NCBI GenBank assembly: GCA_964349285.1
Contig: CAYGFQ010000001.1
Span: 1-45,143, forward strand
Direction: 5' to 3'
DNA length: 45,143 bases
Source of the DNA: an uncultured Candidatus Saccharibacteria bacterium
GTDB lineage: Bacteria > Patescibacteriota > Minisyncoccia > Phycocordibacterales > Phycocordibacteraceae
Below are positions 5,690 to 43,381 of the stretch, piece after piece (the stretch's first letter is position 1; each line of letters starts with the position of its first letter). A model generated the notes under the pieces. That model searched no databases. It was not told where the DNA came from and saw nothing but the letters and a program-made list of their open reading frames with translations. A program made the translations under genes and the position numbers.

Positions 5690-6469
5690 ATGGAAATGAC
5701 CCCGTATCGACTCCGCCAGGCCCTTATCTCACTCGGCCTGTCTCCCAAAGAAGCTTCTATCTACCTTTCCCTTCTTTCCTTAGGGCGCTCGACTGTCTCA
5801 CAAATTGCCCGGAAGGCAGCGGTAAACCGAGCAACAGCATACGTTATCCTCGACGCTCTCATTATTAAAAAGCTCGTTACTATCTCTGGCAAAGAACCGA
5901 AGCAGGAATACGTTGCGGAGTCTCCAGATGCACTTGTCCAGCTCTTCAAAGAAGAAGAGCGCGCGGCGGAAGAGAGAGGGCGACGCGCACAAGAACTTGC
6001 TCTTGAACTTAAATCAATACAAAAGGTCGGTGATCGCCCTCAAGTGCGATTTTACGAAGGGATGGGGGGAATTCGTGCCGTGTTTGAAGATTCTCTCACG
6101 GCAACGTCAGGAAAGATTGTTGCCTATACGTCTATAGAGGACCAGCACGTCTCAATACCTAACTATTTCCCCGAATATTACCAACGACGTAAACGGAAAG
6201 GTATTTTTATGCGCGCTATATTTCCGGATACGAATATGGGTATTGAACGTCAAAATGCGAACAAGGAGGAGTACCGCGACTCAGTACTCGTTCCTGCACA
6301 AACATATGGTATACATCCTGCGATTAATGTATATGACAACAAGCTGATGATTGCCTCCTTCCGTGAGAAGCTCGGCATTATTATCGAAAGCGAGGAGATT
6401 GCAGATGCGATGAAGAAGATATTCGAACTTGCGTGGGTTGGTGCACGTTCGCTTTCACAAAAGAAATAA
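5690..6469 (+). CDS. TrmB-family transcriptional regulator (paralogue 2)
   Basis: LGLSPKEASIYLSLLSLGRSTVSQIARKAAVNRATAYVILDALIIKKLV is a TrmB N-terminal wHTH. The architecture matches 2118..2876. Confidence 0.8.
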   Translation: MEMTPYRLRQALISLGLSPKEASIYLSLLSLGRSTVSQIARKAAVNRATAYVILDALIIKKLVTISGKEPKQEYVAESPDALVQLFKEEERAAEERGRRAQELALELKSIQKVGDRPQVRFYEGMGGIRAVFEDSLTATSGKIVAYTSIEDQHVSIPNYFPEYYQRRKRKGIFMRAIFPDTNMGIERQNANKEEYRDSVLVPAQTYGIHPAINVYDNKLMIASFREKLGIIIESEEIADAMKKIFELAWVGARSLSQKK

Positions 6470-10187: not shown

Positions 10188-10586
10188 ATGGCCAATGCGA
10201 TTGATCTACACGTCGGGAAGCGCCTTCGGCGCCGACGCCGGCTCCTCGGGTTCTCACAACAAAAGCTCGCGGAGTCGATCGGCATCCGGTTCCAACAAAT
10301 CCAGAAGTACGAATGCGGGGCAAACCGCGTGACGGCGAGCAGACTCTACGAGCTCGCAGTTGCGCTGAATGTCCCCGTTACCTACTTCTTCGAGGGCATC
10401 GCGACGGTCGCACAATCAACAACTGACTCCCCGGCCAATGACCGGGACCTGATCGCTTCAGACGTCCTCTCCCAGAAGGAGACGTTGGAACTCGTCCGGG
10501 CTTACTACAAGCTTGGCGAGCGCCCAAGACGTCGCTTGCTCGACCTGGCGAAGGCGCTCCAAGATGAGAGCACCGACGCCGCCTGA
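10188..10586 (+). CDS. XRE-family helix-turn-helix transcriptional regulator
   Basis: HVGKRLRRRRRLLGFSQQKLAESIGIRFQQIQKYECGANRVTASRLYELAVALNVPVTYFFEG is a classic Cro/C1 HTH. An SD-like GGAAGGAAA lies upstream. Confidence 0.8.
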   Translation: MANAIDLHVGKRLRRRRRLLGFSQQKLAESIGIRFQQIQKYECGANRVTASRLYELAVALNVPVTYFFEGIATVAQSTTDSPANDRDLIASDVLSQKETLELVRAYYKLGERPRRRLLDLAKALQDESTDAA

Positions 10587-10832: not shown

Positions 10833-11465
10833 TTACCAAATCTTTGTCTTTTGTCTTTTATCCCCAGTGTTAACAGGTTTGTCCACATGTGTCATAAGAG
10901 CCTTTTTCCGTAAAAAGATGAGTAAAACCATGGCTGCATTGGCAAAGGTGATGGCAACAACGTAGGCAAGGGTGAGCAGGTTGTACTCGACGAGGGCTGC
11001 TATTGCGATGAGGTTACCTACCACAAAGAGTACGTAGCTTCGGGATGTTTCCGTGCCAGGCTCTTCATATACCTTGCGGTAGCTTGGGATATACCCAAGA
11101 AGGTCTATGGCAGTCACCATGAGGACGGAGACAATCGGTTCATCGAGAAAGACCCAGATACCTATTGCGACAAGCGCAAGGAGCAAGACGACCGTATCTG
11201 AGAGTGTGATGTTCTTGGTCCCGTATTTGAGAGACAGCAGGAAGATGCCGAAGACGAGGACCGTCATAATGATCCAGCTGTAGGAGGAGAACCCTCCCCC
11301 GCCGTACCAGATGCCAGCAGTTGCTACTCCCTGGGTAATGGTCCAGATGAGCCAGGTATAGGCGTGGGGCTTGGTCTTCCCTGCCAGGATGTCCTTGTAA
11401 TACGGGACGAAGCTATACAGTCCGACGAAGAAAGCCAGAACCGTAAAGAAGAGCTTCAGTTCCAT
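10833..11465 (-). CDS. Polytopic integral membrane protein (about 6-7 TM), unknown function
   Basis: 210 aa and almost entirely hydrophobic helices (LFFTVLAFFVGLYSF, AYTWLIWTITQGVATAGIWY, WIIMTVLVFGIFLLSL, and others). It starts 5 nt downstream of tRNA-Gly on the same strand. Confidence 0.65.
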   Translation of the reverse strand: MELKLFFTVLAFFVGLYSFVPYYKDILAGKTKPHAYTWLIWTITQGVATAGIWYGGGGFSSYSWIIMTVLVFGIFLLSLKYGTKNITLSDTVVLLLALVAIGIWVFLDEPIVSVLMVTAIDLLGYIPSYRKVYEEPGTETSRSYVLFVVGNLIAIAALVEYNLLTLAYVVAITFANAAMVLLIFLRKKALMTHVDKPVNTGDKRQKTKIW

Positions 11466-11662: not shown

Positions 11663-11718
11663 AGTGAAACCACGTTAGAAATACTACGCGAGAGCTAGGA
11701 GAAAGGCTACCCGCATAC

Positions 11719-11724
11719 TAGTAT
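11719..11724 (+). promoter_or_regulatory. -10 box TAGTAT, 7 nt upstream of cca ATG (leaderless)
   Basis: CATACTAGTATTTCACGTATG. The spacer also contains a parS-like half-site TTTCACGT. Confidence 0.45.
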
Positions 11725-11731
11725 TTCACGT

Positions 11732-13195
11732 ATGACGTTCTCCGTTCCGAACGAAGTAAAGGTGGTCGCTGAAGGCCTTCGAAAGGAAGGATTTGCGGCC
11801 TATCTTGTGGGTGGCTGTGTCCGGGACCTCTTCCTAAAACGTACCCCCAAAGACTGGGATATAACGACAAATGCAAAGCCTGAGGATATTCAGCGCATCT
11901 TCCCTGAATCCTTCTACGAGAACGATTTCGGGACGGTTGGCGTGAAGACTGAATCTGAAGATCCTGCACTTGCCGTCATTGAAGTAACTCCCTACCGCAC
12001 CGAGACTGGCTACTCTGATAAGCGTCGTCCGGACAAAGTTGAGTTTGGACAGAGCCTTGAGGAAGACCTTGCTCGCCGGGACTTCACCATTAACGCCATT
12101 GCCTTCGATGAGGCTAAAGGACAAGTCGTCGATCCGTATAAAGGACAAAAGGACATTGAGCTCAAGGTCCTCCGAACGGTTGGTAACCCCTCCGAGCGCT
12201 TCGAGGAAGACGCTCTTCGCCTTATGCGGGCAGTTCGCCTGGTGGCTGAGCTTGAATTTGCCCTTGATACCGAAACTGCGGCCGCAATACAGGCTAAAAA
12301 GGCTAATCTATCCCATGTTTCACGTGAAAGAATACGGGACGAATTCGTCCGTATTCTCGAGTCCTCTCAACCGATGATGGCTCTGGTTCTCTCACATCAG
12401 CTGGGCATCCTCGAGTACATAGCTCCCGATCTCCTTCGAGGTATTGGTGTAGACCAAAACCAGGCTCATAGCTTTACCGTCTTTGAGCACAACCTCCGGA
12501 CTATGCAGCATGCTGCTGATAAGGGCTGGGACCTCGATATGCGCCTTGCAGGCTTGTTCCACGACATAGCAAAGCCTGAAACACGTCGCTGGTCCGATGA
12601 GAAGAAGGATTGGACGTTCTACGGCCATGAGGTTGTGGGGTCCCGGGTGGCAAAGAAAGCCATGGAGGAGATGCGGTTTTCACGTGAAACTATCGAGCGG
12701 GTAGCGAAGCTTGTTCGCTGGCATATGTTCTTCTCAGACCCTGACCAGGTAACCCTTTCAGCCGTCCGAAGGACTATCCGGAACGTAGGCGAGGAGAATA
12801 TCTGGGATCTTCTGAACCTCCGCATTTGTGACCGTATAGGCACCGGGCGCCCTAAAGAACAGCCGTTCCGCTTCCGGAAGTACAAAGCCATGGTGGAAGA
12901 GGCCCTGCGGGACCCCATCTCCGTCGGTATGCTGAAGACCGATGGCAACCGCCTTATGGACGTCTTTCACGTGAAACCTGGGCCCGTCATAGGTTTTACC
13001 CTCAATGCCCTCCTTGAGGAGGTTCTCGAGGACCCTAAGCTCAACACTGAGGAATATCTAGATAAGCGAACTGTGGAGCTCTTGGCGCTCCCCGAAGTAG
13101 AGCTAAAGAAGCTCGGAGAATCTGGAAAGAAGAGGAGGGGAGAGGCTGAGGAGGCTGAAGTACGTAAAATCCTTGAAAAGCACCACGTGTCCTAG
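11732..13195 (+). CDS. cca: CCA-adding enzyme (tRNA nucleotidyltransferase with C-terminal HD domain)
   Basis: Nucleotidyltransferase motif AYLVGGCVRDLFLKRTPKDWDITT, RRDFTINA, and HD motif GLFHDIAKP. Confidence 0.9.
   Translation: MTFSVPNEVKVVAEGLRKEGFAAYLVGGCVRDLFLKRTPKDWDITTNAKPEDIQRIFPESFYENDFGTVGVKTESEDPALAVIEVTPYRTETGYSDKRRPDKVEFGQSLEEDLARRDFTINAIAFDEAKGQVVDPYKGQKDIELKVLRTVGNPSERFEEDALRLMRAVRLVAELEFALDTETAAAIQAKKANLSHVSRERIRDEFVRILESSQPMMALVLSHQLGILEYIAPDLLRGIGVDQNQAHSFTVFEHNLRTMQHAADKGWDLDMRLAGLFHDIAKPETRRWSDEKKDWTFYGHEVVGSRVAKKAMEEMRFSRETIERVAKLVRWHMFFSDPDQVTLSAVRRTIRNVGEENIWDLLNLRICDRIGTGRPKEQPFRFRKYKAMVEEALRDPISVGMLKTDGNRLMDVFHVKPGPVIGFTLNALLEEVLEDPKLNTEEYLDKRTVELLALPEVELKKLGESGKKRRGEAEEAEVRKILEKHHVS
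12316..12331. other. parS site 1 (ParB-binding centromere-like palindrome), inside cca
   Basis: TGTTTCACGTGAAAGA matches the parS consensus TGTTNCACGTGAAACA at 15/16. It encodes V-S-R-E-R. Confidence 0.75.
12676..12691. other. parS site 2, inside cca
   Basis: GTTTTCACGTGAAACT has a perfect 12-mer core TTTCACGTGAAA (13/16 overall). It is identical over 17 nt to site 4 and is in the same codon phase as site 1 (F-S-R-E-T). Confidence 0.7.
12963..12978. other. parS site 3, inside cca
   Basis: TCTTTCACGTGAAACC matches at 14/16 with a perfect core. It sits in a different codon phase (F-H-V-K). Confidence 0.7.
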
Positions 13196-13196
13196 G

Positions 13197-13212
13197 GTTT
13201 TCACGTGAAACT
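13197..13212. other. parS site 4, 2 nt after the cca stop
   Basis: GTTTTCACGTGAAACT matches at 13/16 with a perfect core. It overlaps the -35 region of the TAGAAT promoter at 13226. Confidence 0.7.
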
Positions 13213-13225
13213 CAGAAATACGGCC

Positions 13226-13231
13226 TAGAAT
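13226..13231 (+). promoter_or_regulatory. Orphan -10 box TAGAAT with no ORF behind it
   Basis: It is the same hexamer used by leaderless genes in this window. The predicted TSS at about 13238 sits at the 5' end of the structured element. Confidence 0.4.
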
Positions 13232-13237
13232 ATAGAT

Positions 13238-13410
13238 AGGGCGGCTGTTTCATGTGAAATACAAAAAGCCGCCTAACCGAGGCACGACAGCGGAAGAGGA
13301 GACGGTACGAGGGGTGACTGTACCCTCTTCCGCTGTCGTGCGGGGACCCGAAAATTGGAGGGGGCAATGTGATGGCGGGTCCCGGGAGAGTGGCTTGGCG
13401 GCTTTTATGG
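13238..13410 (+). ncRNA. Candidate structured ncRNA or MITE-like nested palindrome (family not recognised; strand inferred from the promoter)
   Basis: Closing helix AAAAGCCGCC (13264-13273) / GGCGGCTTTT (13397-13406). Perfect 18-bp hairpin GCACGACAGCGGAAGAGG (13282-13299) / CCTCTTCCGCTGTCGTGC (13324-13341). 8-bp hairpin GGGACCCG (13343-13350) / CGGGTCCC (13376-13383). An alternative 5' pairing partner GGCGGCT lies at 13240-13246. Confidence 0.35.
13246..13261. other. Degenerate parS-like site 5
   Basis: TGTTTCATGTGAAATA matches at 14/16 and lies in the loop of hairpin GGCGGCT/AGCCGCC. Confidence 0.45.
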
Positions 13411-13425
13411 TGTGAACTCTTGCGT

Positions 13426-13441
13426 TGTTTCGCGTGGAACG
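13426..13441. other. Degenerate parS-like site 6
   Basis: TGTTTCGCGTGGAACG matches at 13/16. Confidence 0.35.
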
Positions 13442-13629
13442 TTCTATCCCGCTTAAGTTTCAGGGGATACGCCCCGGTTTCGTAGGATGAGCGACGTTGC
13501 GAAGACGCTTTGGATCAAAGAACGCGCAAAGAACAGCCTTTGTGCAGGACAATCATTGAACTGAATCATCAGAGTGCCTCGCTCTGAGAGTAATCATAGT
13601 CCTTTATAGGACATCGTAAAGGACATACG

Positions 13630-13638
13630 TGTGGATAA
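13630..13638 (+). promoter_or_regulatory. Consensus DnaA box (TGTGGATAA = TTATCCACA)
   Basis: 9/9 match, preceded by GGACAT and flanked by 11-bp direct repeats TCCTTTATAGG (13600-13610 and 13641-13651). Confidence 0.4.
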
Positions 13639-13644
13639 TGTCCT

Positions 13645-14412
13645 TTATAGGGTTATGGAGATAGGGCAGTGGTCTGAGCCGTAGATGTCAGGGTGTATCT
13701 CTGCCTTCTTTACGCTCTTCAGAAATTCACGAGAGATGAAGAAGTAGTCGATGCGCCAACCGACGTTACGGTCTCGAGCTCTCGTGAAAAGGTCCCAATA
13801 TGAATAGGCGACTCTATTCGGGTTGCGGTCCCGCCAGACATCCACATAGCCTGCTGCAATAACTTCGTCTATCCATGCGCGCTCTTCAGGAAGAAAGCCA
13901 GTATTCTCTTCGTTAGCTTCTGGTCGCGCAAGATCAATAGCTTCATGTGCCGTATTTACGTCGCCACAGAAAATGACTGGCTTTTGTTTCCTCAATTTCT
14001 CGCAGAAGGTAAGGAAAGCGTCATAAAAGCGGAGTTTGTAGTCAATCCGGTGAGGGCCCTGTCCACCGTTAGGGAAGTAGCAGTTTATAAGCCAGAAGTC
14101 CTCGTATTCAGCTGCAAGGAAACGGCCCTCATCATCGAATTCCGGGACCCCTAGCCCATAAAGCAAGGAAATAGGCTCTATTTTGGTGTATATAGCGACC
14201 CCGCTATATCCCTTCTTCACCTTAGAAGAGGCGAAGAATGAGGAGAATCCGGGTACCTCCCGAAGGTCTTCCGGAAGCTGCTCCGGGGAAGCCTTGGTCT
14301 CCTGGAGACAGAAGATATCTGGCTTCGTACCTTTTAGGAATGCTTTCCAAAGTGCAGACTCATCCTTTCCAAGGGAGCGTAGCCCGTTCACGTTCCAGGA
14401 GACAATTTTCAT
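13645..14412 (-). CDS. xth: Exodeoxyribonuclease III (AP endonuclease)
   Basis: MKIVSWNVNGLRS..., FCLQETK, GYSGVAIY, NCYFPNGG, FCGDVNTAH, WDLFTRARDRNVGWRIDYFF and SDHCPISI are all Xth/ExoIII family motifs. Confidence 0.9.
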   Translation of the reverse strand: MKIVSWNVNGLRSLGKDESALWKAFLKGTKPDIFCLQETKASPEQLPEDLREVPGFSSFFASSKVKKGYSGVAIYTKIEPISLLYGLGVPEFDDEGRFLAAEYEDFWLINCYFPNGGQGPHRIDYKLRFYDAFLTFCEKLRKQKPVIFCGDVNTAHEAIDLARPEANEENTGFLPEERAWIDEVIAAGYVDVWRDRNPNRVAYSYWDLFTRARDRNVGWRIDYFFISREFLKSVKKAEIHPDIYGSDHCPISITL

Positions 14413-14679: not shown

Positions 14680-17600
14680 ATGAATATTATTTCTGCATGG
14701 ACAAGACATGCTCCGCGACGGAGTGTGGCTTTCCTGCTTGCACTCGCACTTCTTGGCGGATCGTTTGCATGGCCTCAGACGACGAGTGCAACAACTATTG
14801 TTTCCGATACCTTTGGGGTTGGCAGCAATAGTTTTAATGACCTCGCCAATATCCTCGACTGGAACGAAGAAGGGGATGACGACGACTCAATAACGCTTGC
14901 AAAAGTAGGAGGCAACTCCGGCGCAGACGTCCGAAGTCCGGGCGACGAAACCAACGGTCGCTTCGCGAAGATTGGTTACGACTCTCAGAATCACAAAGGA
15001 GAGTGGATTTGTCGCCAGGTAAACTCGTCCAACTATTACAACCTCACCTTGGAGTACCGTTGGAATGGAGATTCCGATGCTGAGAATAACGAGGATTACG
15101 GAGTTGTTGAGTACCGCTCCACCAGTAACGGTAACACCGACCAGACCTGTAACTCTGACTCAAGCGGCTGGACACAGCTTCCAGGAGCAACGCACGAACT
15201 AGAGGCGGAGGAGGATTGGAGTTCAGTACAGGAAATTGAATTGCCTGCGCTCCTAAACAACGATTCTTCATGGTTTATCCGCTTCAGGAACGCTGCGGAA
15301 GATAACAGCACGGGTGGCTTCCGCGGCTTCCATGATCAACCTGCGAGCGAATACTTTCGTGTCGACAGTGTTCTGATTGGAGGCGACTACGACGTTCCTG
15401 GCTCACCGACCGTAACAATCAATCAGGCAGATACCCAGGCAGACCCTACGGGAGATACTCCTATCCTCTTCACGGCTGACTTCAATGAGCCAGTTTTTGG
15501 TTTTGAAGATGGGGATGTCATTATCTCAGGTACTGCACTTCCGACCAGCGTCGACGTGGTCGGCAATGATGGAGATGACATATACACCATCAAAGTGAGC
15601 GGCATGAGTGGAGATGGGACCGTCGTTGCAACTATTCCTTCAGGAGTTGCTGAAGACATAGCAGGTAACGACAATGCTGCCTCGTCATCAACTGACAACA
15701 CCGTCACTTACAACCTTCCAAACCGCGCCCCGCTCGCAGACCCACAGAACGTTGTAACCGACGAAGATACTCCGGTTAACATCACCCTCTCCGGAAGTGA
15801 TCCTGATGGTGACTCCATCACATATGAAGTCGTCATTCTCCCTAATCATGGAAACCTCACCGGTACCGAGCCGAATCTCACCTACACACCGGACGATGAT
15901 TACTTCGGGCCAGACTCCTTCAAGTTCATCACCGACGATGGAGCCCTCAACAGCGTTAGCGCCGAGGTAAAAATCACCGTCAATCCTGTTGAAGATCGCT
16001 GCCCAACCGGCTACCATTTCAACGAGAGCGAAGTATGCGTGCCAGACGAAGTTGAACTTCCTGGACAGTGCATCATCGTGAGCGATGCTCTCACCCTCGT
16101 TGACACGAACGATGAAACGGATAGCCCGGCAGATCCGCTCTCCTTCGTACACTCAGCGTGGGATCACACCCTCGAGTCTGCCGCAACGTGGATCTGGGGT
16201 GATAACCCTGTCCAAGACCCTACCATCGACGAGACACAAGTCTTCACTCGTACGTTCTACCTTGAGGAAGCACCGACAAGCGCGACCCTCGTGCTTGCAT
16301 CTGACAACGGCTACCTAGTAAAGGTAAATGGGACTCAGATGGGTACTGACGAGCTCGGGACGTTCGACCCGAATCCACCGCATACCTTCAACCCCACCAC
16401 GAGCATTCCAGTCACAGGTCTTATCGCAGGAGCAAACACCCTTGAGGTGACAGTCTTCAACAAAGGAACTCCAGGGGAATCCAACCCTCAGAACAACCCC
16501 GCGGGTCTCATCTACAAGCTCACCGTTAACGGTAGCGACTGTGGCGAGCCAAAGGATGATCCGGTCAACTCCTGTATCCTCCCTGAAGGAAACGACAGTG
16601 ATCCGATTGTGTTCGGAGAAACGCCAGTCGAAGAAGACACGCTCCAGACTATTCTCGACGACGCTTACGGTGTTGATGCACCGGACGCAGACCTTGATCA
16701 AGACAACTTCGAGGAGTGGGCTGGTACGGGAAACACGGTCAACTTCACAGTTGAGAACATCAGTGAAGACTCGAACTCAGGCCACAGCCATGTGTTCGGT
16801 TACTACTTGAATGGTGGTGACTTCACCCCAGTCTTCCGTGATGGCTCCGTCGGTGCGCCCTACAGTGGAGCTCCCGATCTTGCCTTCGCGAACAGCCTTG
16901 CCTTCTCGGTAGCAAACGTAAACGACATTGTCTTCGCAATCGCTGACTGGGATGCTGTCGAGTACACGTACTTCGCAACGGATGCATCGCTGAACGCTGG
17001 TAGCGAAGTGCATGCAGTCTCGTACAACGTCGACAACAACAAGTACGCAATTGCCTTTGAGGACCTGCCGTTCTCCGAAGGTGACGAAGACTACAACGAT
17101 GTTGCCGTTGCTCTTGAGATTGTTTCCTGCGAAGCGGGAGCAACCTGTGAGCCAGGCGTCGAACTTCTTGCAAACGGCACCTTTGAGGTTCCGGAAGTGG
17201 GTAGTTCGCTCTGGGATATCTTCAACATTGATGAATATCCAAACCTCGCTTGGGCAGCCGAGTGGCTCAATCCAATCGGTGCTCCACCGATTGCAAACGT
17301 TGAACTCCAGGAGACTGGCCTCAATGGTTGGTCTGCAACGGGCGATGGAGATCAGTGGACTGAACTCGACTCTGATTGGAACGGACATAAAGAAGGACCA
17401 AACAACGAAGCAGGTCAGGTAGCAATTTCCCAGACCATCGACACGGTCCCGGGTGAAACCTACACGCTCACCTTCGACTTCTCACCACGTCCGCAGACGG
17501 ACGCTGCACAGAACAAAGTCGAGGTGCTCGCAAATGATGTCGTCTTCGGTACGGTTGGTCCGCTCGCGACTGCCGGAAACCAGACGGAATGGACATCCCA

Positions 17601-20124
17601 CACCTTCAGCTTCGTCGCTGATGCGAACGAGACGACGGTGAGCTTCCGCGATGCAGGTGCTCCGAGCGATTCTCTCGGCACCTTCGTCGACAACGCAAGC
17701 CTCATGTGCGAAGAGCCAGAGCCGACCGCAACGCTCTCAGCAACGAAGATCATCTGTAACAACGAGTCTGATCTTCCTAACTGGGGCGCAGGCGGTGCAG
17801 ACATCACGGCAACGACTGCCGCTGACTTCCTTGAAACCCATCCTGGCTGCCGCCTTGAAACAGACTGGCAGTTCCAGTGGGTCACGGATGCTGATGACAA
17901 CACGAACCCGGGAGACAACATCGTCTCTCCGGCACCAAGCCCGTGGTACCTCTTTGGTCAGGGAGTTGGTGATGGCTCACTCACGACCGAGATTCCTGCT
18001 GGTGGAAAGGTCTGGGTACGCGAAGTGCTCAAGGAAGGATTCATCCCATTCACGGGAGCGAATACTTCAGAGAACATCTCAGCTGAGATCTACTGTTCAA
18101 CAGATGTCTTGAACTACGACAACTGGGATTGGATAGATCCGGTTGCAGAAGGGGAGGATTACTTCTGTGTTGCCTTCAACGCACCGACGAACCCAGGTGA
18201 TCAGTGTGATCCAAACGCCTCAACCGTCCTGCTCTCAAGCGATGCAGATGATGAAGAGACGCTTCTCACGCTCGACGAGAGTGGTCCGGCTTCCTTGGTA
18301 GGCGAGTTCATCCACAGCTCGTGGGCACCGACGTTCGATGCCCTCTGGATCTGGAAGGATTCGGGCACCTCAGCTGAGGATGCTCTCAATGGTACGGATG
18401 AGACCTTCACTCGCACCTTCACCATCGTTGGTACGCCGCTTGACTCGACCCTCGAGCTTGCTGCTGACAACGGCTACGAAGTTAAGGTGAATGGTACGAG
18501 CGTCTGTGCAGATGCTGGTGAGCACAACTACGAGGCCACCACGACCTGTGCGGTCCCAGCCGCAGTGCTCATAAACGGTGAGAACACCATCACCTTCGAG
18601 ATTGTGAACATCGACCATGAGACGGCAAATGATCCGGAGAACAATCCGGCTGGTCTTCTCTACAAGCTCACGGTGAACGAGAACGAATGCGAACTCCCAC
18701 CGGAGCCCTTCTCGAGTGTGACGATGTGTAAGACGGACACCGAGGGCACGCCGCTCTCGAACTGGACGCTCACCCTTCGTGGTGCACATGTTGAAGACTT
18801 GGTTGTCCCGACCAACAGCGCAGCTGGTATCAATAGCTCCACCTCACTTGAGGACGGACTTTCCTACCTTGCGTACGCATCTGGCATCTGGACGAATCAG
18901 AGCGGTGCAAACGCAGTCGACGCTGAGTACTCAACGACGGACGGCTGGACAACACCGATGGACGGCTACACCGGTTACCAGACAGACATCCTCGAGCTCC
19001 AGATTGAAGAGACCTTCGATCCAAACTCGAACTGGGGTCCTTACTCAAGTGCACACGAGTACGCACAGTCCTTTATCAAGGATGGTGACGGCTCAGCAAA
19101 CTTCCGCATCTTCGACGGTACCGGCACAACGCCAAACGCAGGCTGGTACGGCGACAACAGCGGAACGCTTGCCGTCTCACTCTACGAAGGCTATGCCGGT
19201 GTAACGGGTGAGAATGGTTGTGTCACCTTCGAGAACGTACCGTACGGTGCCTACACCGCAGGTGAACTCCTCCAGAATGGTTGGGAGCACTATGCAACGT
19301 GGGACTCTGAGACGGTTGTCGACGGTGGCGCGGTCTCAGTAAATGGTGAGACAGAAACCTTCACCATCCAGAACCGCTATATCCGTGAAGGAAATCAGGG
19401 AAGCGATACTGGAACGCTCACCATCGTGAAGGAAACGAACGGCGTCGAAGGCGTCTTCACCTTCCAGGTGGGAGGTAACGAGGACTTCTCGAATGTAGAG
19501 ATTGCAACGGAAGGCGGCGAGGGTTCTGAAGAACTTACCCTTGAGCCTGGGCTCTACTCAGTCACAGAGAACGTTCCTGAAGGATGGACGCTTGAGAGCG
19601 TCACCTGTGAGTACGAAGGTGAGTCTGAGGGCTCGGAAATCCTGAACGGTCATCAGATTCAGATCTACGAGGACGAGGAAGTAACCTGTACATTCGTGAA
19701 CCACGGTTCCTCTGAAAGCGACGGCAATACGTCACGAACGAGCAACAACGATGGTGGTGGCGACGGCGATGGTGAGGTCCTCGGCGCAACGGACGAAGCA
19801 TCTTGCGGTCCTTTGCTCTCGACCTTCCTCGGTCTTGGAAAGGTGAACGACGCAACTGAGGTGAGCGAGCTCCAGGGCTTCTTGAACGACCACATGAGCT
19901 CGGGACTTCCGGTAACTGGCGTCTTCGGGCCTATGACCCACAGCGCAGTCCAGGCCTTCCAGCTTCTCTACTGGGAGGAGGTGCTTCAGCCATGGTTCGG
20001 GATTGAAGGTTCGGCGATACAGGATAAGGATGATGCAACTGGCTACGTCTACAAGACGACGCAGCGACAGGTCAACAACATCTTCTGCCCATCCTTGAAC
20101 CTACCGATGCCTGAGCTTCCGTAA
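14680..20124 (+). CDS. Giant (1814 aa) secreted multidomain surface protein with a C-terminal peptidoglycan-binding domain
   Basis: Signal peptide MNIISAWTRHAPRRSVAFLLALALLGGSFAWPQTTSA. Cadherin/VCBS-like repeat NRAPLADPQNVVTDEDTPVNITLSGSDPDGDSITY...PDSFKF (about nt 15721-16000). DUF4114-like IAFEDLPFSEGDEDYNDVAVAL. DUF642/CBM-like LLANGTFEVPEVG.... Two copies of a ~140-aa module. SpaA/Cna-B-like domains (TMCKTDTEGTPLSNWTLTLRG; LEPGLYSVTENVPEGWTLESVTC). C-terminal PG_binding_1-like VSELQGFLNDHMSSGLPVTGVFGPMTHSAVQAFQ. Confidence 0.9.
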   Translation: MNIISAWTRHAPRRSVAFLLALALLGGSFAWPQTTSATTIVSDTFGVGSNSFNDLANILDWNEEGDDDDSITLAKVGGNSGADVRSPGDETNGRFAKIGYDSQNHKGEWICRQVNSSNYYNLTLEYRWNGDSDAENNEDYGVVEYRSTSNGNTDQTCNSDSSGWTQLPGATHELEAEEDWSSVQEIELPALLNNDSSWFIRFRNAAEDNSTGGFRGFHDQPASEYFRVDSVLIGGDYDVPGSPTVTINQADTQADPTGDTPILFTADFNEPVFGFEDGDVIISGTALPTSVDVVGNDGDDIYTIKVSGMSGDGTVVATIPSGVAEDIAGNDNAASSSTDNTVTYNLPNRAPLADPQNVVTDEDTPVNITLSGSDPDGDSITYEVVILPNHGNLTGTEPNLTYTPDDDYFGPDSFKFITDDGALNSVSAEVKITVNPVEDRCPTGYHFNESEVCVPDEVELPGQCIIVSDALTLVDTNDETDSPADPLSFVHSAWDHTLESAATWIWGDNPVQDPTIDETQVFTRTFYLEEAPTSATLVLASDNGYLVKVNGTQMGTDELGTFDPNPPHTFNPTTSIPVTGLIAGANTLEVTVFNKGTPGESNPQNNPAGLIYKLTVNGSDCGEPKDDPVNSCILPEGNDSDPIVFGETPVEEDTLQTILDDAYGVDAPDADLDQDNFEEWAGTGNTVNFTVENISEDSNSGHSHVFGYYLNGGDFTPVFRDGSVGAPYSGAPDLAFANSLAFSVANVNDIVFAIADWDAVEYTYFATDASLNAGSEVHAVSYNVDNNKYAIAFEDLPFSEGDEDYNDVAVALEIVSCEAGATCEPGVELLANGTFEVPEVGSSLWDIFNIDEYPNLAWAAEWLNPIGAPPIANVELQETGLNGWSATGDGDQWTELDSDWNGHKEGPNNEAGQVAISQTIDTVPGETYTLTFDFSPRPQTDAAQNKVEVLANDVVFGTVGPLATAGNQTEWTSHTFSFVADANETTVSFRDAGAPSDSLGTFVDNASLMCEEPEPTATLSATKIICNNESDLPNWGAGGADITATTAADFLETHPGCRLETDWQFQWVTDADDNTNPGDNIVSPAPSPWYLFGQGVGDGSLTTEIPAGGKVWVREVLKEGFIPFTGANTSENISAEIYCSTDVLNYDNWDWIDPVAEGEDYFCVAFNAPTNPGDQCDPNASTVLLSSDADDEETLLTLDESGPASLVGEFIHSSWAPTFDALWIWKDSGTSAEDALNGTDETFTRTFTIVGTPLDSTLELAADNGYEVKVNGTSVCADAGEHNYEATTTCAVPAAVLINGENTITFEIVNIDHETANDPENNPAGLLYKLTVNENECELPPEPFSSVTMCKTDTEGTPLSNWTLTLRGAHVEDLVVPTNSAAGINSSTSLEDGLSYLAYASGIWTNQSGANAVDAEYSTTDGWTTPMDGYTGYQTDILELQIEETFDPNSNWGPYSSAHEYAQSFIKDGDGSANFRIFDGTGTTPNAGWYGDNSGTLAVSLYEGYAGVTGENGCVTFENVPYGAYTAGELLQNGWEHYATWDSETVVDGGAVSVNGETETFTIQNRYIREGNQGSDTGTLTIVKETNGVEGVFTFQVGGNEDFSNVEIATEGGEGSEELTLEPGLYSVTENVPEGWTLESVTCEYEGESEGSEILNGHQIQIYEDEEVTCTFVNHGSSESDGNTSRTSNNDGGGDGDGEVLGATDEASCGPLLSTFLGLGKVNDATEVSELQGFLNDHMSSGLPVTGVFGPMTHSAVQAFQLLYWEEVLQPWFGIEGSAIQDKDDATGYVYKTTQRQVNNIFCPSLNLPMPELP
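16127..16545 (+). repeat. Intragenic module copy 1 (~140 aa)
   Basis: PADPLSFVHSAW...WIWGD...ETQVFTRTFYL...ASDNGYLVKVNGT...NNPAGLIYKLTVNGSDC is paralogous to 18287-18690. Confidence 0.7.
18287..18690 (+). repeat. Intragenic module copy 2 (~135 aa)
   Basis: PASLVGEFIHSSW...WIWKD...DETFTRTFTI...AADNGYEVKVNGT...NNPAGLLYKLTVNENEC. Confidence 0.7.
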
Positions 20125-32555: not shown

Positions 32556-33329
32556 GTGAAAGCGAAACAGTCTCTCGGCCAGAACTTTCTCATGCACGCA
32601 CAAACGGCGGAGCGTATCGTCGAGGCCTCCGGAGTAGGGAAGGATGATGTGGTGCTTGAGATAGGCCCTGGAACGGGAATGCTCACCCGCGCCCTCCTTA
32701 AGCAGGCAGGGAAGGTGGTCGCTGTTGAGGCCGACCGCGAACTGGTACCCGTACTTGCAGAGACTTTCGCAAAAGAGGTTACCGACGGCACGCTTACGAT
32801 TGTCCATCAGGATATTCGCGAGTTTGATCCTGAGTCGCTTGGGGGTCCTTATCACCTGGTTGCGAACATTCCGTACTACATCACAGGAGAGATCATTCGC
32901 ACGTTTCTCACTACACCAAAGAAACCTGCCTCCATGACACTTCTTGTACAAAAAGAAGTTGCCATACGTATTGCACGCGACACCAAAGAAAGTCTTCTTT
33001 CTCTTTCCGTAAAAGCGTATGGCACGCCGAAGTATTGCTTCACCGTTCCGCGCGGTGCGTTTGTTCCAAAACCAAATGTGGATTCAGCCGTACTCCACAT
33101 CGCAAACATCCATTCGCCGTTCGCTACCGGAGAAGAAGAAACGTTCTTCGAGATATTGCGGGCAGGGTTCGCACACAAGCGAAAGTTCCTCGCACGAAAT
33201 CTCGAGGTCGTTGCGCATGGAGATGCTATTCGTGAGGCCTTCGCAGTTACCAAGCTCGGTGAGAAGACTCGTGCCGAGGACGTGCCACTTAGTTCCTGGC
33301 AACAACTCGCCACGCTCCTTAAGAAGTAG
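32556..33329 (+). CDS. rsmA: 16S rRNA (adenine1518/1519-N6)-dimethyltransferase
   Basis: KQSLGQNFLMH, the SAM motif VLEIGPGTGMLT, and VANIPYYITGEI are classic KsgA/RsmA motifs. Confidence 0.9.
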   Translation: MKAKQSLGQNFLMHAQTAERIVEASGVGKDDVVLEIGPGTGMLTRALLKQAGKVVAVEADRELVPVLAETFAKEVTDGTLTIVHQDIREFDPESLGGPYHLVANIPYYITGEIIRTFLTTPKKPASMTLLVQKEVAIRIARDTKESLLSLSVKAYGTPKYCFTVPRGAFVPKPNVDSAVLHIANIHSPFATGEEETFFEILRAGFAHKRKFLARNLEVVAHGDAIREAFAVTKLGEKTRAEDVPLSSWQQLATLLKK

Positions 33330-33335
33330 TGCCCC

Positions 33336-35009
33336 ATGTATACTTCGGGTATGACGCTTCGCACGCTCATTGAGCGTATCGAGACTTCGCCCCTTACCGT
33401 TGCAGAGTCTGTTTCTCTCATTGCCTCGGCAATTTTCCTGCGAACGTTCTTTGAGAATTTCACGAACGCAAATAACGGCGGAACACTAAACGGATTTCTC
33501 GATACGCTCTTTCACTATCCGCTCTGGTTTGGCTGTGTGTTTCTCGCAACGATACTCGTGCTCTCAGTCATAGCGAAGGTGCCAGTTGCGACTGCACGCA
33601 CACTCGTTGCCTACTCATCATTTGTCATACTCCTACCGCCCGTACTCGACATCTTCGTTCACGGGTTTGCTGCACAACCCTATAGCTTCCTTGCAGGAGA
33701 CTACACAACAATGGCGTTCCACTTCGCAACGCTCATGCTCTTCACCGGAGCAATTGGTATTGGTATTAAACTTGAGGTACTCATCGCACTTGGTGCCACC
33801 TTCTGGTACACGCTTCTAAAGACCGGGAGTGCGCTTCGCGGCCTAGCTGCAGCGTTTTTGGTCTATGGCGCTATCTTCTTCTTTCTTTCGCTTCCGGTTT
33901 GGGGTCTTTCACTTTGGCACGCTGCAACACCGGGCGAAAACGAGACGCTCTCAGGAAAAGCTGTCGAGCAGTTCTTCTTCAGCGATGACCCTGCTGCTTC
34001 TGCTTTCTGGCCGCGCCCCCTTGTGGTTGACGTGCGCGCGAGCGAATCGTTAGTCGGTACTTCCGGAGCTGATCATTTCTCTGTGACGATTTCGTCGCTC
34101 TTACTCATTCTGTTTACTGCTTTGCTGTGCGCACTCTATGCGCGAGCGCGGCCCGCAGGGTTTCGTGCGCTTCTTGGAAACGTGCGCTACACGCGTGTCT
34201 TACACTATCTTTTTCTTGCTGCCGTCGGGTGTTACCTCGGGCTACGCTTCCAAGGTAGTGGCGTTGTACTTTCTTTTGGAGACGTACTTGCGTTTCTCTT
34301 ACTTGGCATGAGTTTGGTGTTCACGTGGCTCTACGCAGTTTGGGAAAACGACGAAGAGGATGTGTCGATAGACAGCATCTCAAACGAGCACCGTCCGCTT
34401 GTTACGGGGGCGACAACTGTTCGAGAGTGGCGTGAGGTGCGCTGGACACTGTTCGTTCTTGCACTTGCTGCAGGATTTCTTGCCGGGTGGTATCCCTTCA
34501 TCTTCATTAGCGTCCTTATACTCCTGTATCACCTCTACTCCTGCCCACCACTTCGTCTGAAACGTGTCATCGGACTCTCCTCAGCAATCGTTGCTGGAAA
34601 TGCTTTGCTTGCGGTACTCGCTGGCTTCTTTCTCTCTGCAGGAACTGAGTCACTTGCAGCGTTTCCACTGCAGACGGCACTTGGTATCTTCACTATCTTC
34701 TTGCTTGCAGAGAACGTGAAGAACATGAAAGACCTAGCGGGGGATCGTGCGACGGGCATTATGACGCTTCCCGTTCTCTTGGGAGAGCGTGTTGGTCCGC
34801 ATGTGGTTGCAGCACTTGCCGCGCTCGCGTTCATCCTCGTACCGTTTTTCTTTGGGCTTTCTGAGTACTCACTCATACTTGCGGGCATCTGCGCCTTTGT
34901 TGCCTATCTCTTTGTGGTGCGCAAACCATACCGAGAACTTCCTCTCTTTCTCCTGTACTTCGTCTTCTTCGCTCTCTTTTTTGCATTTCGTCTCGTTGGA
35001 CTTGCCTAA
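33336..35009 (+). CDS. Polytopic membrane protein: novel ~300-aa N-terminal domain fused to a UbiA-family prenyltransferase domain
   Basis: The first Asp-rich motif NDEEDVSID (NDxxDxxxD, nt 34347-34373) is followed by RPLVTG. The second motif is KDLAGDRATGIMTLPVLLG. About 14 predicted TM segments. Confidence 0.7.
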   Translation: MYTSGMTLRTLIERIETSPLTVAESVSLIASAIFLRTFFENFTNANNGGTLNGFLDTLFHYPLWFGCVFLATILVLSVIAKVPVATARTLVAYSSFVILLPPVLDIFVHGFAAQPYSFLAGDYTTMAFHFATLMLFTGAIGIGIKLEVLIALGATFWYTLLKTGSALRGLAAAFLVYGAIFFFLSLPVWGLSLWHAATPGENETLSGKAVEQFFFSDDPAASAFWPRPLVVDVRASESLVGTSGADHFSVTISSLLLILFTALLCALYARARPAGFRALLGNVRYTRVLHYLFLAAVGCYLGLRFQGSGVVLSFGDVLAFLLLGMSLVFTWLYAVWENDEEDVSIDSISNEHRPLVTGATTVREWREVRWTLFVLALAAGFLAGWYPFIFISVLILLYHLYSCPPLRLKRVIGLSSAIVAGNALLAVLAGFFLSAGTESLAAFPLQTALGIFTIFLLAENVKNMKDLAGDRATGIMTLPVLLGERVGPHVVAALAALAFILVPFFFGLSEYSLILAGICAFVAYLFVVRKPYRELPLFLLYFVFFALFFAFRLVGLA

Positions 35010-35065
35010 CGACGGTATTTCTTGTGCACATACAAGGTATGGCGCCCAGAGAGGGGGCCGTTATG

Positions 35066-35074
35066 TGCTAGTAT
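35066..35074 (+). promoter_or_regulatory. Extended -10 TGcTAGTAT at the head of the T4SS-like locus
   Basis: TATGTGCTAGTAT lies 13 nt upstream of ATG 35088. Confidence 0.5.
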
Positions 35075-35087
35075 TTTCTTGAGTACC

Positions 35088-36002
35088 ATGCTTCATTCTC
35101 GCCGTATTCCCCTCGTTGTCTCACTCCTTCTTGCACTCGGCATGGTAGGGGGAGCCTTCTGGCTCTCCGCTCCCCAGATTCCGACAGCGAACGCGCTTTC
35201 TACCGAAGAGGCACTGCGCGCGTATGCTGAGAAAGACACCGATGCAGACGGCCTCCCTGACTGGGAAGAGGTGCTCTACAAGACTGATCCGGCAAACCCG
35301 AACTCGGTAAGCCAAGAGATGACGGATGGCGAGGCAGTTGCCAAAGGGCTTGTTGCTCCCCGCTTTAAGACTGAAGGGACAGTCGAGGGCGATATGTCGG
35401 GTCTCCTTGAGATATATGCTTCTTCCGGGACGGTTACCGACAAATTCAGTAGAAAGTTCATCGAGAATTTCATCAAAGAACGGGTTGATGGTCCTTTGAG
35501 CGAGGAGGAGCTTCTTACCTTCGTCGAGACAGCAAATGCTGAGCTCTTGCGACGCGACATTTCTCGGTACACTACCAATGACCTGAAGCTTGGGGCGCGA
35601 GGGAAAGAAGCGCTTTTGAAGTACATAGAAGATCTTGATCGGGTCATGGTCACGAATAGTCCTACCCGCGATGCGAAGAACGTATTCGAGCACTATACCG
35701 ACTTCGTAACAGGAGATGATACGGTTCGCTCGTTGATTCGTATTCGTGCGGTCGGGAATGCGTACGCTGCTTCTGCCGAAGCAATGATGACGATTACGGT
35801 CCCTCCTGAAGTTGCTGCGCAACACATTGATTTTGCGAATGCCTACGCGCTCCTTGCTGAAGCAACGCTTGATATGGGCTCGATGGATACCGACCCACTT
35901 CGTGGTCTTATCGGGTTCACGCAGTATCAAGATGTATGGGCACATACTTCCGACGCTTTTGCGGCGCTTGGAAAGACGATGAGTGAACAACTTGGCATCT
36001 AA
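35088..36002 (+). CDS. N-terminally anchored extracytoplasmic protein, unknown function (T4SS-like locus)
   Basis: TM IPLVVSLLLALGMVGGAFWL, then a calcium-binding-like motif DTDADGLPDWEEVLYKTDPANPNS (thrombospondin type-3-like), then a helical domain. The antisense 297-aa ORF is Arg/Cys-rich and rejected. Confidence 0.65.
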   Translation: MLHSRRIPLVVSLLLALGMVGGAFWLSAPQIPTANALSTEEALRAYAEKDTDADGLPDWEEVLYKTDPANPNSVSQEMTDGEAVAKGLVAPRFKTEGTVEGDMSGLLEIYASSGTVTDKFSRKFIENFIKERVDGPLSEEELLTFVETANAELLRRDISRYTTNDLKLGARGKEALLKYIEDLDRVMVTNSPTRDAKNVFEHYTDFVTGDDTVRSLIRIRAVGNAYAASAEAMMTITVPPEVAAQHIDFANAYALLAEATLDMGSMDTDPLRGLIGFTQYQDVWAHTSDAFAALGKTMSEQLGI

Positions 36003-36003
36003 T

Positions 36004-37545
36004 ATGCACCACACTACTACTCATCGGTTCACTACTCGCCTCGGCACATCGCTTCTTGGGCTCATGCTTGTCGTCTCGGCAGGGTTTGCTCTGCCGCAGC
36101 GTGCACATGCGGTGTGGGGTTTTGCCGACATTGTCTTTGACCCAGGCGCACTCGCACAAGCACTCGTCGACTGGGCTATCCAGGAAGTGACCTCGGCTCT
36201 TTCGGATCAGATGGTGCGCAAGGAGTTTATCTTCGACAGCATCGCCCGTATCGCCTCGACTGCGGCACTCCAGGAGATGACCGACAGCATGGTGAACTAC
36301 GCTTCTCAGGGCCAAGAAGGGGAGCCGGCGTTCGAAACGAATCTCCCCAACTCCAATCTGCGTATTGGAGACACGGTCGCAAACGAACTTCTTGCACAGA
36401 TACAGTCGGGTGGTGAGGTGGAATCACCTTTCAGCGTCGACGTGGGGCAGGGAATCATCAACAACTATTTCCGCAGGACAGGAGAGGGGGCCTTTTCACG
36501 CACCGCAGCCTACACGCTTGATGAAAGCTGTGAGAATCACGAAGCATTCATCGCGGGAGACTTTAGCGCCTGTGGCTTCACCGGTTTTGTGAATCTCTTT
36601 GGAAATTCTGCTAACAACCCACTTGGCTTTGGCACGCTCGTCGAGACTGAACTTACGGACCAGATATCGGAGGCTCAAACAACCTACCGCGCGAATCTCG
36701 ATTGGGGAGATGGCTTCCGTGCGGAAACGAACTGTCCAGAGGCAGAGGGAGAAGAAGGGGAGACCACTGAAACAACTGAAACAACTGAAACAACTGAGAC
36801 GACTGACACTACGACTACCGAGACGAGCGGGGAAGTCAGTCTCACACAAACACTTTCCACAAACTGTGATACGGGAACACCTCCCTCTATTGTCTCGGAA
36901 GCAATTAACAGCTATCTCATCGATGCTGGACTTGATGTGAACACAAACGCTGACGAATTGAACGAAGTATTCGTAACGTGGGTGACCTCACTCATTACCG
37001 ACAATCTCTTTGGAGGTGACGGTCTTGCAGGCGGAGTAAGTTACCAGCGCGGTGAGGAGCAAGCAGCAAGTGGAGCGACGGTTAACGCCCTTCGGGTGAG
37101 TCTCCAGACCCAGCTGCCGAAGATTTCCGAATTCAAGAGGAACTGGACGACCATACTGAACATGGCAAAGCAGGCGCGGGACCGCGTGGTCGCGTGTGGT
37201 GCCGGTGTTCAGGATGTACTCGATACGATTGTGCAGCCAGTTGTCGATCAAGGTGAAGACGCTATCGAGCGGGCAGATCGTGCAACGGCAAAGATTGGAG
37301 AATTGACGGTTAAGCTTCAGAACCCAGACAACACACAGGAAGATATGGGCAAGATTCTTGCTGAGTATCAGGCACTTGAAGACTCTGGAGATATCCCGGG
37401 TGTGCATGAGTACATCTTTGCTGCCGAAAACGCTGCTGACACTGGGCCACCGGTCATGGAAGAGAATAGCCTCTACCGCAAGATGCGCATCATAGCCGAG
37501 TCGAGCTGTTCATCCATTGACGCGATGACCGTGCCTAGCAGCTAG
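36004..37545 (+). CDS. Secreted protein, possible VirB5/TrbJ analogue
   Basis: Signal peptide ...LVVSAGFALPQRAHA|V. The mature N-terminus WGFADIVFDPGALAQALVDW resembles the V-x-D-P-x-N-x-x-Q start of TrbJ/VirB5 proteins. It is helical with conserved Cys pairs. The CDS is solid but the function is tentative. Confidence 0.6.
   Translation: MHHTTTHRFTTRLGTSLLGLMLVVSAGFALPQRAHAVWGFADIVFDPGALAQALVDWAIQEVTSALSDQMVRKEFIFDSIARIASTAALQEMTDSMVNYASQGQEGEPAFETNLPNSNLRIGDTVANELLAQIQSGGEVESPFSVDVGQGIINNYFRRTGEGAFSRTAAYTLDESCENHEAFIAGDFSACGFTGFVNLFGNSANNPLGFGTLVETELTDQISEAQTTYRANLDWGDGFRAETNCPEAEGEEGETTETTETTETTETTDTTTTETSGEVSLTQTLSTNCDTGTPPSIVSEAINSYLIDAGLDVNTNADELNEVFVTWVTSLITDNLFGGDGLAGGVSYQRGEEQAASGATVNALRVSLQTQLPKISEFKRNWTTILNMAKQARDRVVACGAGVQDVLDTIVQPVVDQGEDAIERADRATAKIGELTVKLQNPDNTQEDMGKILAEYQALEDSGDIPGVHEYIFAAENAADTGPPVMEENSLYRKMRIIAESSCSSIDAMTVPSS
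36760..36825 (+). repeat. In-frame 9-bp tandem repeat encoding (E-T-T)n
   Basis: GAAACAACT occurs three times perfectly (36769-36795), flanked by degenerate units. It translates to ETTETTETTETTETTDTTTTET. Confidence 0.8.
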
Positions 37546-37557
37546 GCATTCACGAGC

Positions 37558-40367: not shown

Positions 40368-40400
40368 GAAGGAAAGGGAACTTGCGCTCTCTGCACTTCA

Positions 40401-40409
40401 TGTTATAAT
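40401..40409 (+). promoter_or_regulatory. Consensus extended -10 TGtTATAAT
   Basis: CATGTTATAATC lies 12 nt upstream of ATG 40422. Confidence 0.6.
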
Positions 40410-40421
40410 CTTTGACATCTT

Positions 40422-41972: not shown

Positions 41973-41975
41973 CCT

Positions 41976-42281: not shown

Positions 42282-42321
42282 CTACGTGCGCAAGTCCCCT
42301 CGGTAGCAGGGGATAATCGGG

Positions 42322-42327: not shown

Positions 42328-42334
42328 GGGGGAG

Positions 42335-42748: not shown

Positions 42749-42750
42749 CT

Positions 42751-43380: not shown

Positions 43381-43381
43381 T

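Follow-up and report, generated by a model that had tools for sequence, protein, structure and literature searches.

In Bacillus subtilis, the parS sites that ParB binds reportedly have the consensus TGTTNCACGTGAAACA, and some of them are said to lie inside genes, such as spo0J. Those sites lie far from one another, with 5-39 kb between the four strongest, and there is no sub-kilobase array. In Caulobacter crescentus, the five strongest parS sites lie within 5 kb, about 8 kb from ori, inside genes that are essential or have a high fitness cost (Tran et al. 2018, PMC5815017). This clustering has been argued to raise the local concentration of ParB (PMC5815017). Myxococcus xanthus has 24 parS sites upstream of parAB, in a region that is about 30 kb away from ori (Harms et al. 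2013, PMC3778016). Here we describe six parS-like palindromes in a 45,143-nt stretch of DNA from an uncultured member of the Patescibacteria (contig CAYGFQ010000001.1; we call the whole stretch the window). The palindromes lie inside and just past cca, which encodes a tRNA nucleotidyltransferase. We consider it quite likely that they are the chromosomal centromere (a parS array) of a Paceibacteria-type Patescibacteria genome, where a putative ParB would be loaded.

Like the Caulobacter sites, these putative ParB-binding sites of 16 bp are close-packed, occur inside a gene, and are near the origin but not at it. Unlike the Caulobacter sites, they form a denser array (six sites in 1.1 kb), are about 37 kb from dnaA, are not next to parAB, and belong to the Patescibacteria. 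The likeness to Myxococcus is that its cluster is large and tandem, and that its centromere is clearly separate from oriC. But the Myxococcus array is directly upstream of parAB and has many more sites, whereas here there is no parAB within 10 kb on either side in 80 relatives. The preliminary description of this DNA spoke of an unusually compact centromere. Given the clusters known from Caulobacter (PMC5815017) and Myxococcus (PMC3778016), that wording was overstated and weakly justified. The array is a known kind of element, not a new kind, in a group from which it had no prior description. (A full-text literature search that combined ParB or parS with names for the candidate phyla radiation, or CPR, returned nothing on chromosome segregation or origin structure in Patescibacteria.)

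Six sites in and after cca

For comparison with the window, we took from a species-level genome collection the 80 cca loci that are closest to it. All are from metagenome-assembled genomes of Patescibacteria, and they are labelled as Parcubacteria, Paceibacterota, or Kaiserbacteria. (Two of them are complete genomes, of 579 and 721 kb.) We refer to 57 of these as closer relatives (Cca at least 69.5% identical) and to the other 23 as more distant relatives. A parS-like site is one with at most three mismatches to the canonical 16-mer TGTTNCACGTGAAACA. The host gene and the sites are listed here; a slot is an aligned position, given as an offset in cca, and the counts of filled slots are for the closer relatives.

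11732..13195, plus strand: cca-like tRNA nucleotidyltransferase gene, 487 amino acids (aa), which hosts sites 1-3
12316..12331: parS site 1, TGTTTCACGTGAAAGA, 15/16 matches, inside cca at codons 195-200 (H-V-S-R-E-R); slot +585, filled in 38/57
12637..12652: decayed slot, GGGGTCCCGGGTGGCA in the window; relatives carry the parS-like TGGTTCACGTGTAACA at offset +906, filled in 35/57
12676..12691: parS site 2, GTTTTCACGTGAAACT, 13/16 matches, inside cca at codons 315-320 (R-F-S-R-E-T); slot +945, filled in 35/57
12963..12978: parS site 3, TCTTTCACGTGAAACC, 14/16 matches, inside cca in the other frame, at codons 411-416 (V-F-H-V-K-P); slot +1232, filled in 20/57
13197..13212: parS site 4, GTTTTCACGTGAAACT, begins 2 nt past the cca stop codon; its aligned position is kept in relatives
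13246..13261: parS site 5, TGTTTCATGTGAAATA, 14/16 matches, intergenic; aligns with TTTCACGTGAAA in relatives
13426..13441: parS site 6, TGTTTCGCGTGGAACG, 13-14/16 matches, intergenic and degenerate; TTTCACGTGGAAC in 10 of 11 aligned relatives

Sites 4-6 are in a 450-nt spacer ahead of the convergent gene xth. The cca product has the Pfam domains PolyA_pol, PolyA_pol_RNAbd, HD, and tRNA_NucTran2_2, which makes it a class II tRNA nucleotidyltransferase with an HD domain. Its best matches in NCBIfam are models for CCA tRNA nucleotidyltransferases, with scores below the equivalog cut-offs.

The 12-mer TTTCACGTGAAA occurs exactly four times in the window (at 12318, 12678, 12965, and 13199). In 100 shuffles that preserve dinucleotides, the expected count was 0.00, and none of the shuffles reached four. 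The six parS-like sites all fall within 12316-13441, with none in the remaining 44 kb. They correspond to 12 strand-matches, versus 1.24 expected, and none of 100 shuffles reached 12. All six are 16-bp palindromes of the parS type with one to three mismatches (1 at 12316, 3 at 12676, 2 at 12963, 3 at 13197, 2 at 13246, and, at 13426, 3 on the plus strand and 2 on the minus strand), and four have the exact 12-bp core. Sites 2 and 4 share 17 nt without any difference (GGTTTTCACGTGAAACT). GTTTCAC half-sites are not enriched across the window as a whole (9 versus 6.4 expected).

These counts agree with most of what was first reported for the sites: four exact 12-mers with no other copy in 44 kb, extended matches of 15/16, 13/16, 14/16, and 13/16, degenerate copies at 13246 and 13426, and identity of sites 2 and 4 over 17 nt. 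A half-site reported at 11724 fared worse. This sequence (TTTCACGT, 2 nt before the ATG) is seen in just one of the 80 orthologous loci, which is the window itself. The same region, 11690-11731, holds a separate element, CTAGGAGA-N13-15-TACTAGTATTTT, which is conserved directly ahead of the cca start codon in many relatives and resembles a promoter whose leader is very short or missing. The reported half-site overlaps the CTAGGAGA/TACTAGTATTTT element in the window's genome only.

Conservation, codon choice, and the case for ParB

We then asked where parS-like sites occur across 1.33 Mb, which comprises the 80 loci (up to 10 kb on each side of cca) and the window. Of the 304 sites, 299 fall in the interval from -3.5 to +2 kb relative to the start of cca, and the other five are scattered. 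The density is 1.1-3.0 sites per kb in bins from +500 to +2,000, and it is zero or nearly so further out on both sides (-10 to -3.5 kb, and +2 to +11.5 kb). The remaining 44 kb of the window and an 8-kb extension of it have no parS-like site, and the 12-mer is also absent from the dnaA regions of relatives. About 70 of the 80 relatives have the sites, and the median span of the array in relatives is about 0.9 kb, versus 1.1 kb in the window. At least one site is found directly past the cca stop codon in 45 of the 57 closer relatives, and the non-coding sites after cca are likewise conserved in the aligned relatives.

In 15 of the 23 more distant relatives, an array of 3-7 sites lies upstream of cca instead, by 0.4-3.4 kb, in or around yraN (UPF0102). 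Perfect 16-mers (TGTTTCACGTGAAACA) are found among these relocated arrays, as in loci L065 and L072. (We noted yraN-located arrays, 0.4-3.4 kb upstream of cca, in L059, L061, L063-L066, L068, L070, L072-L074, and L080.) The array is thus a conserved feature of the neighbourhood of cca in which single sites come and go, and it has changed place at least once.

To see where the motif ends, we used a second set of sites that were picked on the inner 12 bp alone; 236 of these are in the region, and just 2 are in the flanks (about 0.9 Mb). Among the half-sites of this set, 52-58% have G at position 2, and about 37% have T at position 1. In the non-coding sites, the next three bases beyond the 16-mer are random. 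Since the flanks are random but the outer preference of parS is retained, the element ends where parS ends. Across the 299 sites, the central hexamer is CACGTG in 198, and the main variation that is tolerated is T or C at position 5. This agrees with the half-sites that ParB proteins are known to bind, GTTTCAC and GTTCCAC (PMC7022226). So the sites do have the sequence of parS, as first described, both in their match to TGTTNCACGTGAAACA and in the boundaries of the motif.

Two related kinds of site were considered and rejected. The Noc-binding site (NBS, ATTTCCCGGGAAAT) has CCCGGG at its centre and A at position 2; here, CCCGGG is outside the ten commonest variants and position 2 is G. A partition site from a plasmid or phage (such as P1 parS or F sopC) would be on an extrachromosomal or mobile replicon, beside parAB of its own; here, rpmH, rnpA, yidC, dnaA, dnaN, tRNAs, ksgA, and uvrD are all on the replicon, and there is no parAB nearby.

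Codon choice in cca shows selection on these sites. The three in-gene copies are in two codon phases, as first described (offsets 584 and 944 are in phase 2, and offset 1231 is in phase 1). In the alignment of cca, the serine codons under sites are TCA in 48/56, 40/42, and 42/44 sequences (background 0.19), and the arginine codons are CGT in 42/44, 45/56, and 32/54 (background 0.22). Val196 is GTT in 34/34 (background 0.24), Val414 is GTG in 43/43 (background 0.27), and glutamate under the sites is GAA in about 86% (background 0.46). At site 1, the codons GTT, TCA, CGT, and GAA are all far above background. Codon 415 retains xAA (AAA, GAA, or CAA) while the amino acid varies among Lys, Glu, and Gln. 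The decayed slot has a consensus of GGT-TCA-CGT-GTA in relatives, versus GGG-TCC-CGG-GTG in the window.

Binomial p-values for codon usage are all below 1e-5, and many are below 1e-20, although these overstate the independence of the sequences, which are kin. However, background codons in that alignment are close to random, which means that phylogenetic inertia cannot account for the pattern. When we ranked all 396 codon columns by synonymous entropy, the five most constrained columns were all site codons. Because the synonymous choice TCA-CGT-GAA is fixed at the in-gene sites, selection acts on the DNA, not on the protein. The preliminary description had argued for conservation at the DNA level and had proposed checking if orthologous cca genes keep the sites at synonymous cost. 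The two frames, the non-coding copies, and the codon tests and entropy ranking all support it.

How far is the array from the origin? A contig in ENA (L082) is 100% identical to positions 32751-45143 of the window over 12,393 nt. It runs on through a cluster for a type IV secretion system (T4SS), yidC, rnpA, and rpmH to dnaA and dnaN. This puts the start of dnaA at the equivalent of about 50.7 kb in the window, or about 37 kb to the right of the array. As complete genomes of this clade are 0.58-0.72 Mb, 37 kb is about 5-6% of the chromosome. The window had been thought to be origin-proximal, and with respect to dnaA, it is. The gene order T4SS-yidC-rnpA-dnaA-dnaN recurs in the relatives, and it has been reported for Paceibacteria (PMC12102498).

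The case for a centromere is made by the identity of the motif with parS, its clustering, its absence from the flanking sequence that we examined, its presence in about 70 species at fixed positions with selection on synonymous codons, its relocation, and its proximity to dnaA. The sequence comparisons support well a conserved, origin-proximal parS array, some of whose sites are embedded in the cca reading frame at synonymous cost. Together with this evolutionary behaviour, the sequence suggests that a ParB quite probably binds here. By analogy with ParABS systems elsewhere, ParB dimers would bind to each of the 16-bp sites, clamp shut in a CTP-dependent manner, and then slide along to the DNA on either side. 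In this way, they would build one partition complex about 37 kb from dnaA, and this complex would mark the origin region to be segregated and probably also to be loaded with SMC. Having several sites within about 1 kb would raise the rate of loading and the local concentration of ParB.

Several observations weigh against this interpretation. First, four of the six sites in the window deviate from the consensus at positions 1, 2, 15, or 16. Second, we searched about 54 kb of the organism's own sequence (the window and two end extensions, which were reached via exact-protein look-ups from the window ends) and found neither a ParB gene nor a ParA gene. This includes the 45 kb of the window, as had been noted at the outset. 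Nor did we find either gene in the 10 kb on each side of cca in the 80 relatives, in the 10 kb around dnaN in relatives, or among 120 loci from metagenomes; the related loci that were searched come to about 2.1 Mb. Walking from the window ends, and from DnaN homologues in relatives, we reached dnaA-dnaN and 10 kb beyond without encountering parAB. tblastn with Spo0J, Soj, and domain IV of DnaA against the window and all of the loci gave no match; scanning for the motifs GERRxRA and KGGxGK(S/T)T gave spurious matches only; and a search of a protein database seeded with Spo0J gave Bacillus proteins only. So the array is not next to parAB, where chromosomal parS sites often lie. If the array is the centromere, then this lineage would depart from the common arrangement in having its centromere away from parAB. 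Third, the array sits among other conserved elements (arrays of the 9-mer TAAAGGACA, and DnaA boxes), which implies that the locus may do more than segregation.

Flanking repeats and other explanations

The elements around the array are as follows.

10852..10887, plus strand: upstream module, TGTCTTTTA (one mismatch from TGTCCTTTA) overlapping TTATCCCCA, followed by a weak box and then TTGTCCACA
12115..12147, plus strand: pair of TAAAGGACA copies, at 12115-12123 and 12139-12147, within cca and to the left of the parS array
13599..13648: right-flank module, TAAAGGAC at 13599 (minus), 13617 (plus), and 13640 (minus) around a DnaA box; abuts the 3' end of xth
13630..13638, minus strand: perfect DnaA box TTATCCACA, between inverted copies of TAAAGGACA

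The ranking by synonymous constraint had flagged TAAAGGACA as a second conserved 9-mer at the locus (codons 128-130 and 139-141). There are six copies in the window, versus 1.2 expected, and none of 100 shuffles reached six. Just one copy in the 45 kb is outside 12115-12147 and 13599-13647. These arrays look like boundary elements of the ParB complex, or else like the iterons or operators that an element of the origin type, or one for replication control, would have.

This raises the possibility, which we hold only tentatively, that the locus is a composite region for replication origin or replication control, in which parS is flanked by DnaA boxes and by iteron-like arrays of TAAAGGACA with a putative lineage-specific binder. 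The real oriC, or else a DnaA-control site similar to datA or DARS, would conceivably be here rather than at dnaA. (Either of these would extend the proposal of a ParB-binding array.) Several comparisons are in favour. Among 8-mers, TAAAGGAC is the most enriched at the locus, with 354 copies in the region versus 10 in 886 kb of flanks, and it is found in 80 of 81 sequences. Similarly, 40 of the 43 perfect TTATCCACA boxes in the 1.33 Mb are at the locus (in relatives, at about +1850 and from -300 to -3000 of the cca start). In most of the 80 relatives, there is a fixed downstream module with one or two copies of TAAAGGACA followed by TGTGGATAA and TGTCCTTTA, which has a phasing of about 12 bp and abuts the end of xth. 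The upstream module consists of tandem 9-mers that resemble DnaA boxes (at 10858-10887 in the window), phased at about 10-11 bp, with an AT-rich stretch ahead of them; with a strict anchor, it is found in 52 of 81 loci. In the relatives, TGTCCTTTA is fused to 3-6 tandem DnaA-like boxes past the AT-rich stretch, and there are 1-2 boxes downstream. In the window, the GC content dips modestly, to 35-41%, over about 90 nt just upstream of this module; we saw no clear DnaA-trio or unwinding element (DUE).

The 9-mer also tracks the parS array. In 46 of 73 loci, TAAAGGACA lies within 600 bp of the array on both sides, and this is also so where the array has moved to yraN. We scanned metagenomes for two tandem copies of TAAAGGACA and found 120 loci, of which 48 have cca, 43 have xth, 30 have yraN, and 46 have parS. 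Roughly half of the 120 have neither cca, xth, nor yraN, and may be chance matches or other contexts. (One of the matches, at 2878-2946 of L146, comes from a tandem repeat of the coding type, (TAAAGGACAAGG)n, that has nothing to do with the locus.) Further lineages (L093, L111, L120, and L142) have 9-17 copies of TAAAGGACA, both direct and inverted, in AT-rich DNA with an embedded DnaA box. By comparison, DnaA-like boxes are few in the intergenic regions on either side of dnaA, with about two in each. (In the dnaA-dnaN spacer, two boxes are followed by TAATAGTAA, which overlaps the ribosome-binding site of dnaN, so we did not call it an unwinding element.)

Other observations point away from an origin at this locus. 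It is not adjacent to dnaA. GC skew is weak throughout, with only a local change from negative to positive at the locus; there is no clear change of sign, and the far flanks are near 0 on both sides. An origin-type skew pattern was seen in 14 of 42 loci, versus 25 with the same sign on both sides. Nor does the coding strand switch clearly: the plus strand has 52% of the coding sequence to the left and 69% to the right. DnaA boxes are few in the window itself, where they are not enriched overall (8 versus 6.3 expected). Finally, among the 80 relatives, no candidate for the binding protein is conserved beside the locus.

There are partial parallels for the flanking arrays. Iteron-type origins with DnaA boxes and nearby par sites are known from oriCII of Vibrio cholerae chromosome 2 and from the plasmids P1, F, and RK2. 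The flanking TAAAGGACA arrays, but not the rest of the locus, resemble these: both have short direct or inverted repeats at a spacing of about 12-21 bp, AT-rich DNA, and an embedded DnaA box, beside partition sites. Unlike in those cases, the replicon here is the main chromosome (with dnaA, dnaN, and rpmH), no initiator similar to Rep or RctB was identified, and the skew gives no evidence that replication starts here. Clusters of DnaA boxes outside of oriC are also known, namely datA and DARS in Escherichia coli and the DnaA-box clusters of B. subtilis. As in those clusters, a few DnaA boxes are combined with sites for an accessory protein, at a conserved position that is tens of kb from dnaA. 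In contrast to datA and DARS, the accessory motif here is unrelated to the sites for IHF or Fis. We know of no precedent for a DnaA-box cluster that is linked with a parS array.

The flanking TAAAGGACA arrays and DnaA boxes, the synonymous cost at which the 9-mer is kept in cca, and the movement of the arrays together with parS all point to a composite cassette. It is therefore possible, though we would not bet on it, that the parS array is the core of an origin/centromere cassette that is peculiar to Paceibacteria. Such a cassette would be a true replication origin 37 kb from dnaA, a locus for replication control, or a set of boundary elements that confine the ParB complex.

A much less probable explanation is that the palindromes are operators, for cca, the tRNAs, or xth, of an unrelated transcription factor that binds palindromes, such as a local helix-turn-helix (HTH) regulator. 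HTH genes are indeed nearby (XRE-type at 10188-10586, and TrmB-type at 2118-2876 and 5690-6469), and the failure to find a ParB gene in about 54 kb of the genome and about 2.1 Mb of related loci would fit as well. But the sites extend over 1.1 kb, mostly in and past the coding region rather than at a promoter, and their sequence is the pan-bacterial parS consensus out to 14-16 bp. Also, the XRE-type gene is present in 2 of the 80 relatives, versus about 70 for the sites, and the array can sit in a different gene (yraN), which would not be expected of a cca operator. These last two points make a local regulator unlikely.

It is highly improbable that the sites are a by-product of constraint on protein or RNA (an S-R-E peptide motif or mRNA hairpins) or of chance. 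Two of the in-gene sites do encode, in the same frame, the conserved (V/F)-S-R-E of CCA-adding enzymes. But many encodings of this peptide are possible, yet one set of codons is fixed; codon 415 keeps xAA while its amino acid changes; and zero copies are expected by chance. Constraint on the protein is ruled out by the codon tests, by the third in-gene site, which is in another frame, and by the three sites that are non-coding. Finally, CACGTG is a palindromic hexamer of the kind that type II restriction-modification systems target, but we can rule out, or very nearly so, that the 12-mer is a word spread over the genome (for DNA uptake, as a target of methylation or restriction-modification, or as a dispersed repeat). 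In all of the sequence examined, the sites are confined to one locus, with no copy in the other 44 kb, the 8-kb extension, or the relatives' dnaA regions and just two core-type sites in about 0.9 Mb of flanks.

The neighbourhood and its significance

The spacer between cca and xth has conserved features besides the parS sites. The largest is this one.

13264..13406: conserved structured spacer between parS sites 5 and 6, with a hairpin at 13282-13341 (arms of 25 nt) inside a long-range helix, AAAAGCCGCC...GGCGGCTTTT

This structure may be a bidirectional terminator or a small RNA. Just beyond site 6, at 13463-13475, is a 4-bp hairpin (GGGG-ATACG-CCCC) that covaries, with GC changed to AU in 5 of 12 sequences. 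When RNAalifold was run on 51 spacers, there was support only for this 4-bp covarying hairpin and for the terminator-like long-range helix. Rfam matched only the four tRNAs in the window; it had no credible match at 13100-13750 and no family for the spacer. The cca-xth spacer also contains further conserved blocks, such as AAAGAGCTCGCAAAGAACA.

More broadly, the window encodes four tRNA genes, regulators of the TrmB and XRE types, peptidoglycan-binding and LysM/M23 proteins, uvrD, ksgA, and a PrgI-type component of a T4SS. The gene order rny-HU-mgsA-trypsin-like-module-tRNAs-cca-xth is conserved. The T4SS-like cluster (PrgI, a TraC-like protein, a VirB4-type ATPase, and unannotated partners) spans from 42335 to the end of the window and 1-20630 of L082, up to yidC-rnpA-rpmH. 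Some of the neighbours are poorly conserved. The XRE-type HTH gene (10188-10586) is present at 2 of the 80 relatives' loci. A 210-aa open reading frame (ORF) at 10833-11465, beside the upstream module, has no family match and is present in none of the 80. These two are probably recent insertions or, in the case of the ORF, not a gene. At 14680-20124, there is an 1814-aa surface-type protein with Big_9/cadherin-like, DUF642, SpaA-like, and peptidoglycan-binding domains; one of the 80 relatives has it at that position.

The array provides a concrete, conserved, and easily recognised putative centromere for a large clade of ultra-small and mostly uncultured bacteria. It is also a clean natural example of selection at the DNA level that overrides codon choice within an essential gene, and it can be used as a landmark to orient and check assemblies of CPR genomes. 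The flanking modules with TAAAGGACA and DnaA boxes are the part that is most worth pursuing. If they are functional, they would represent a new cis-element, and a trans-acting factor to go with it, at the origin region of these reduced genomes.

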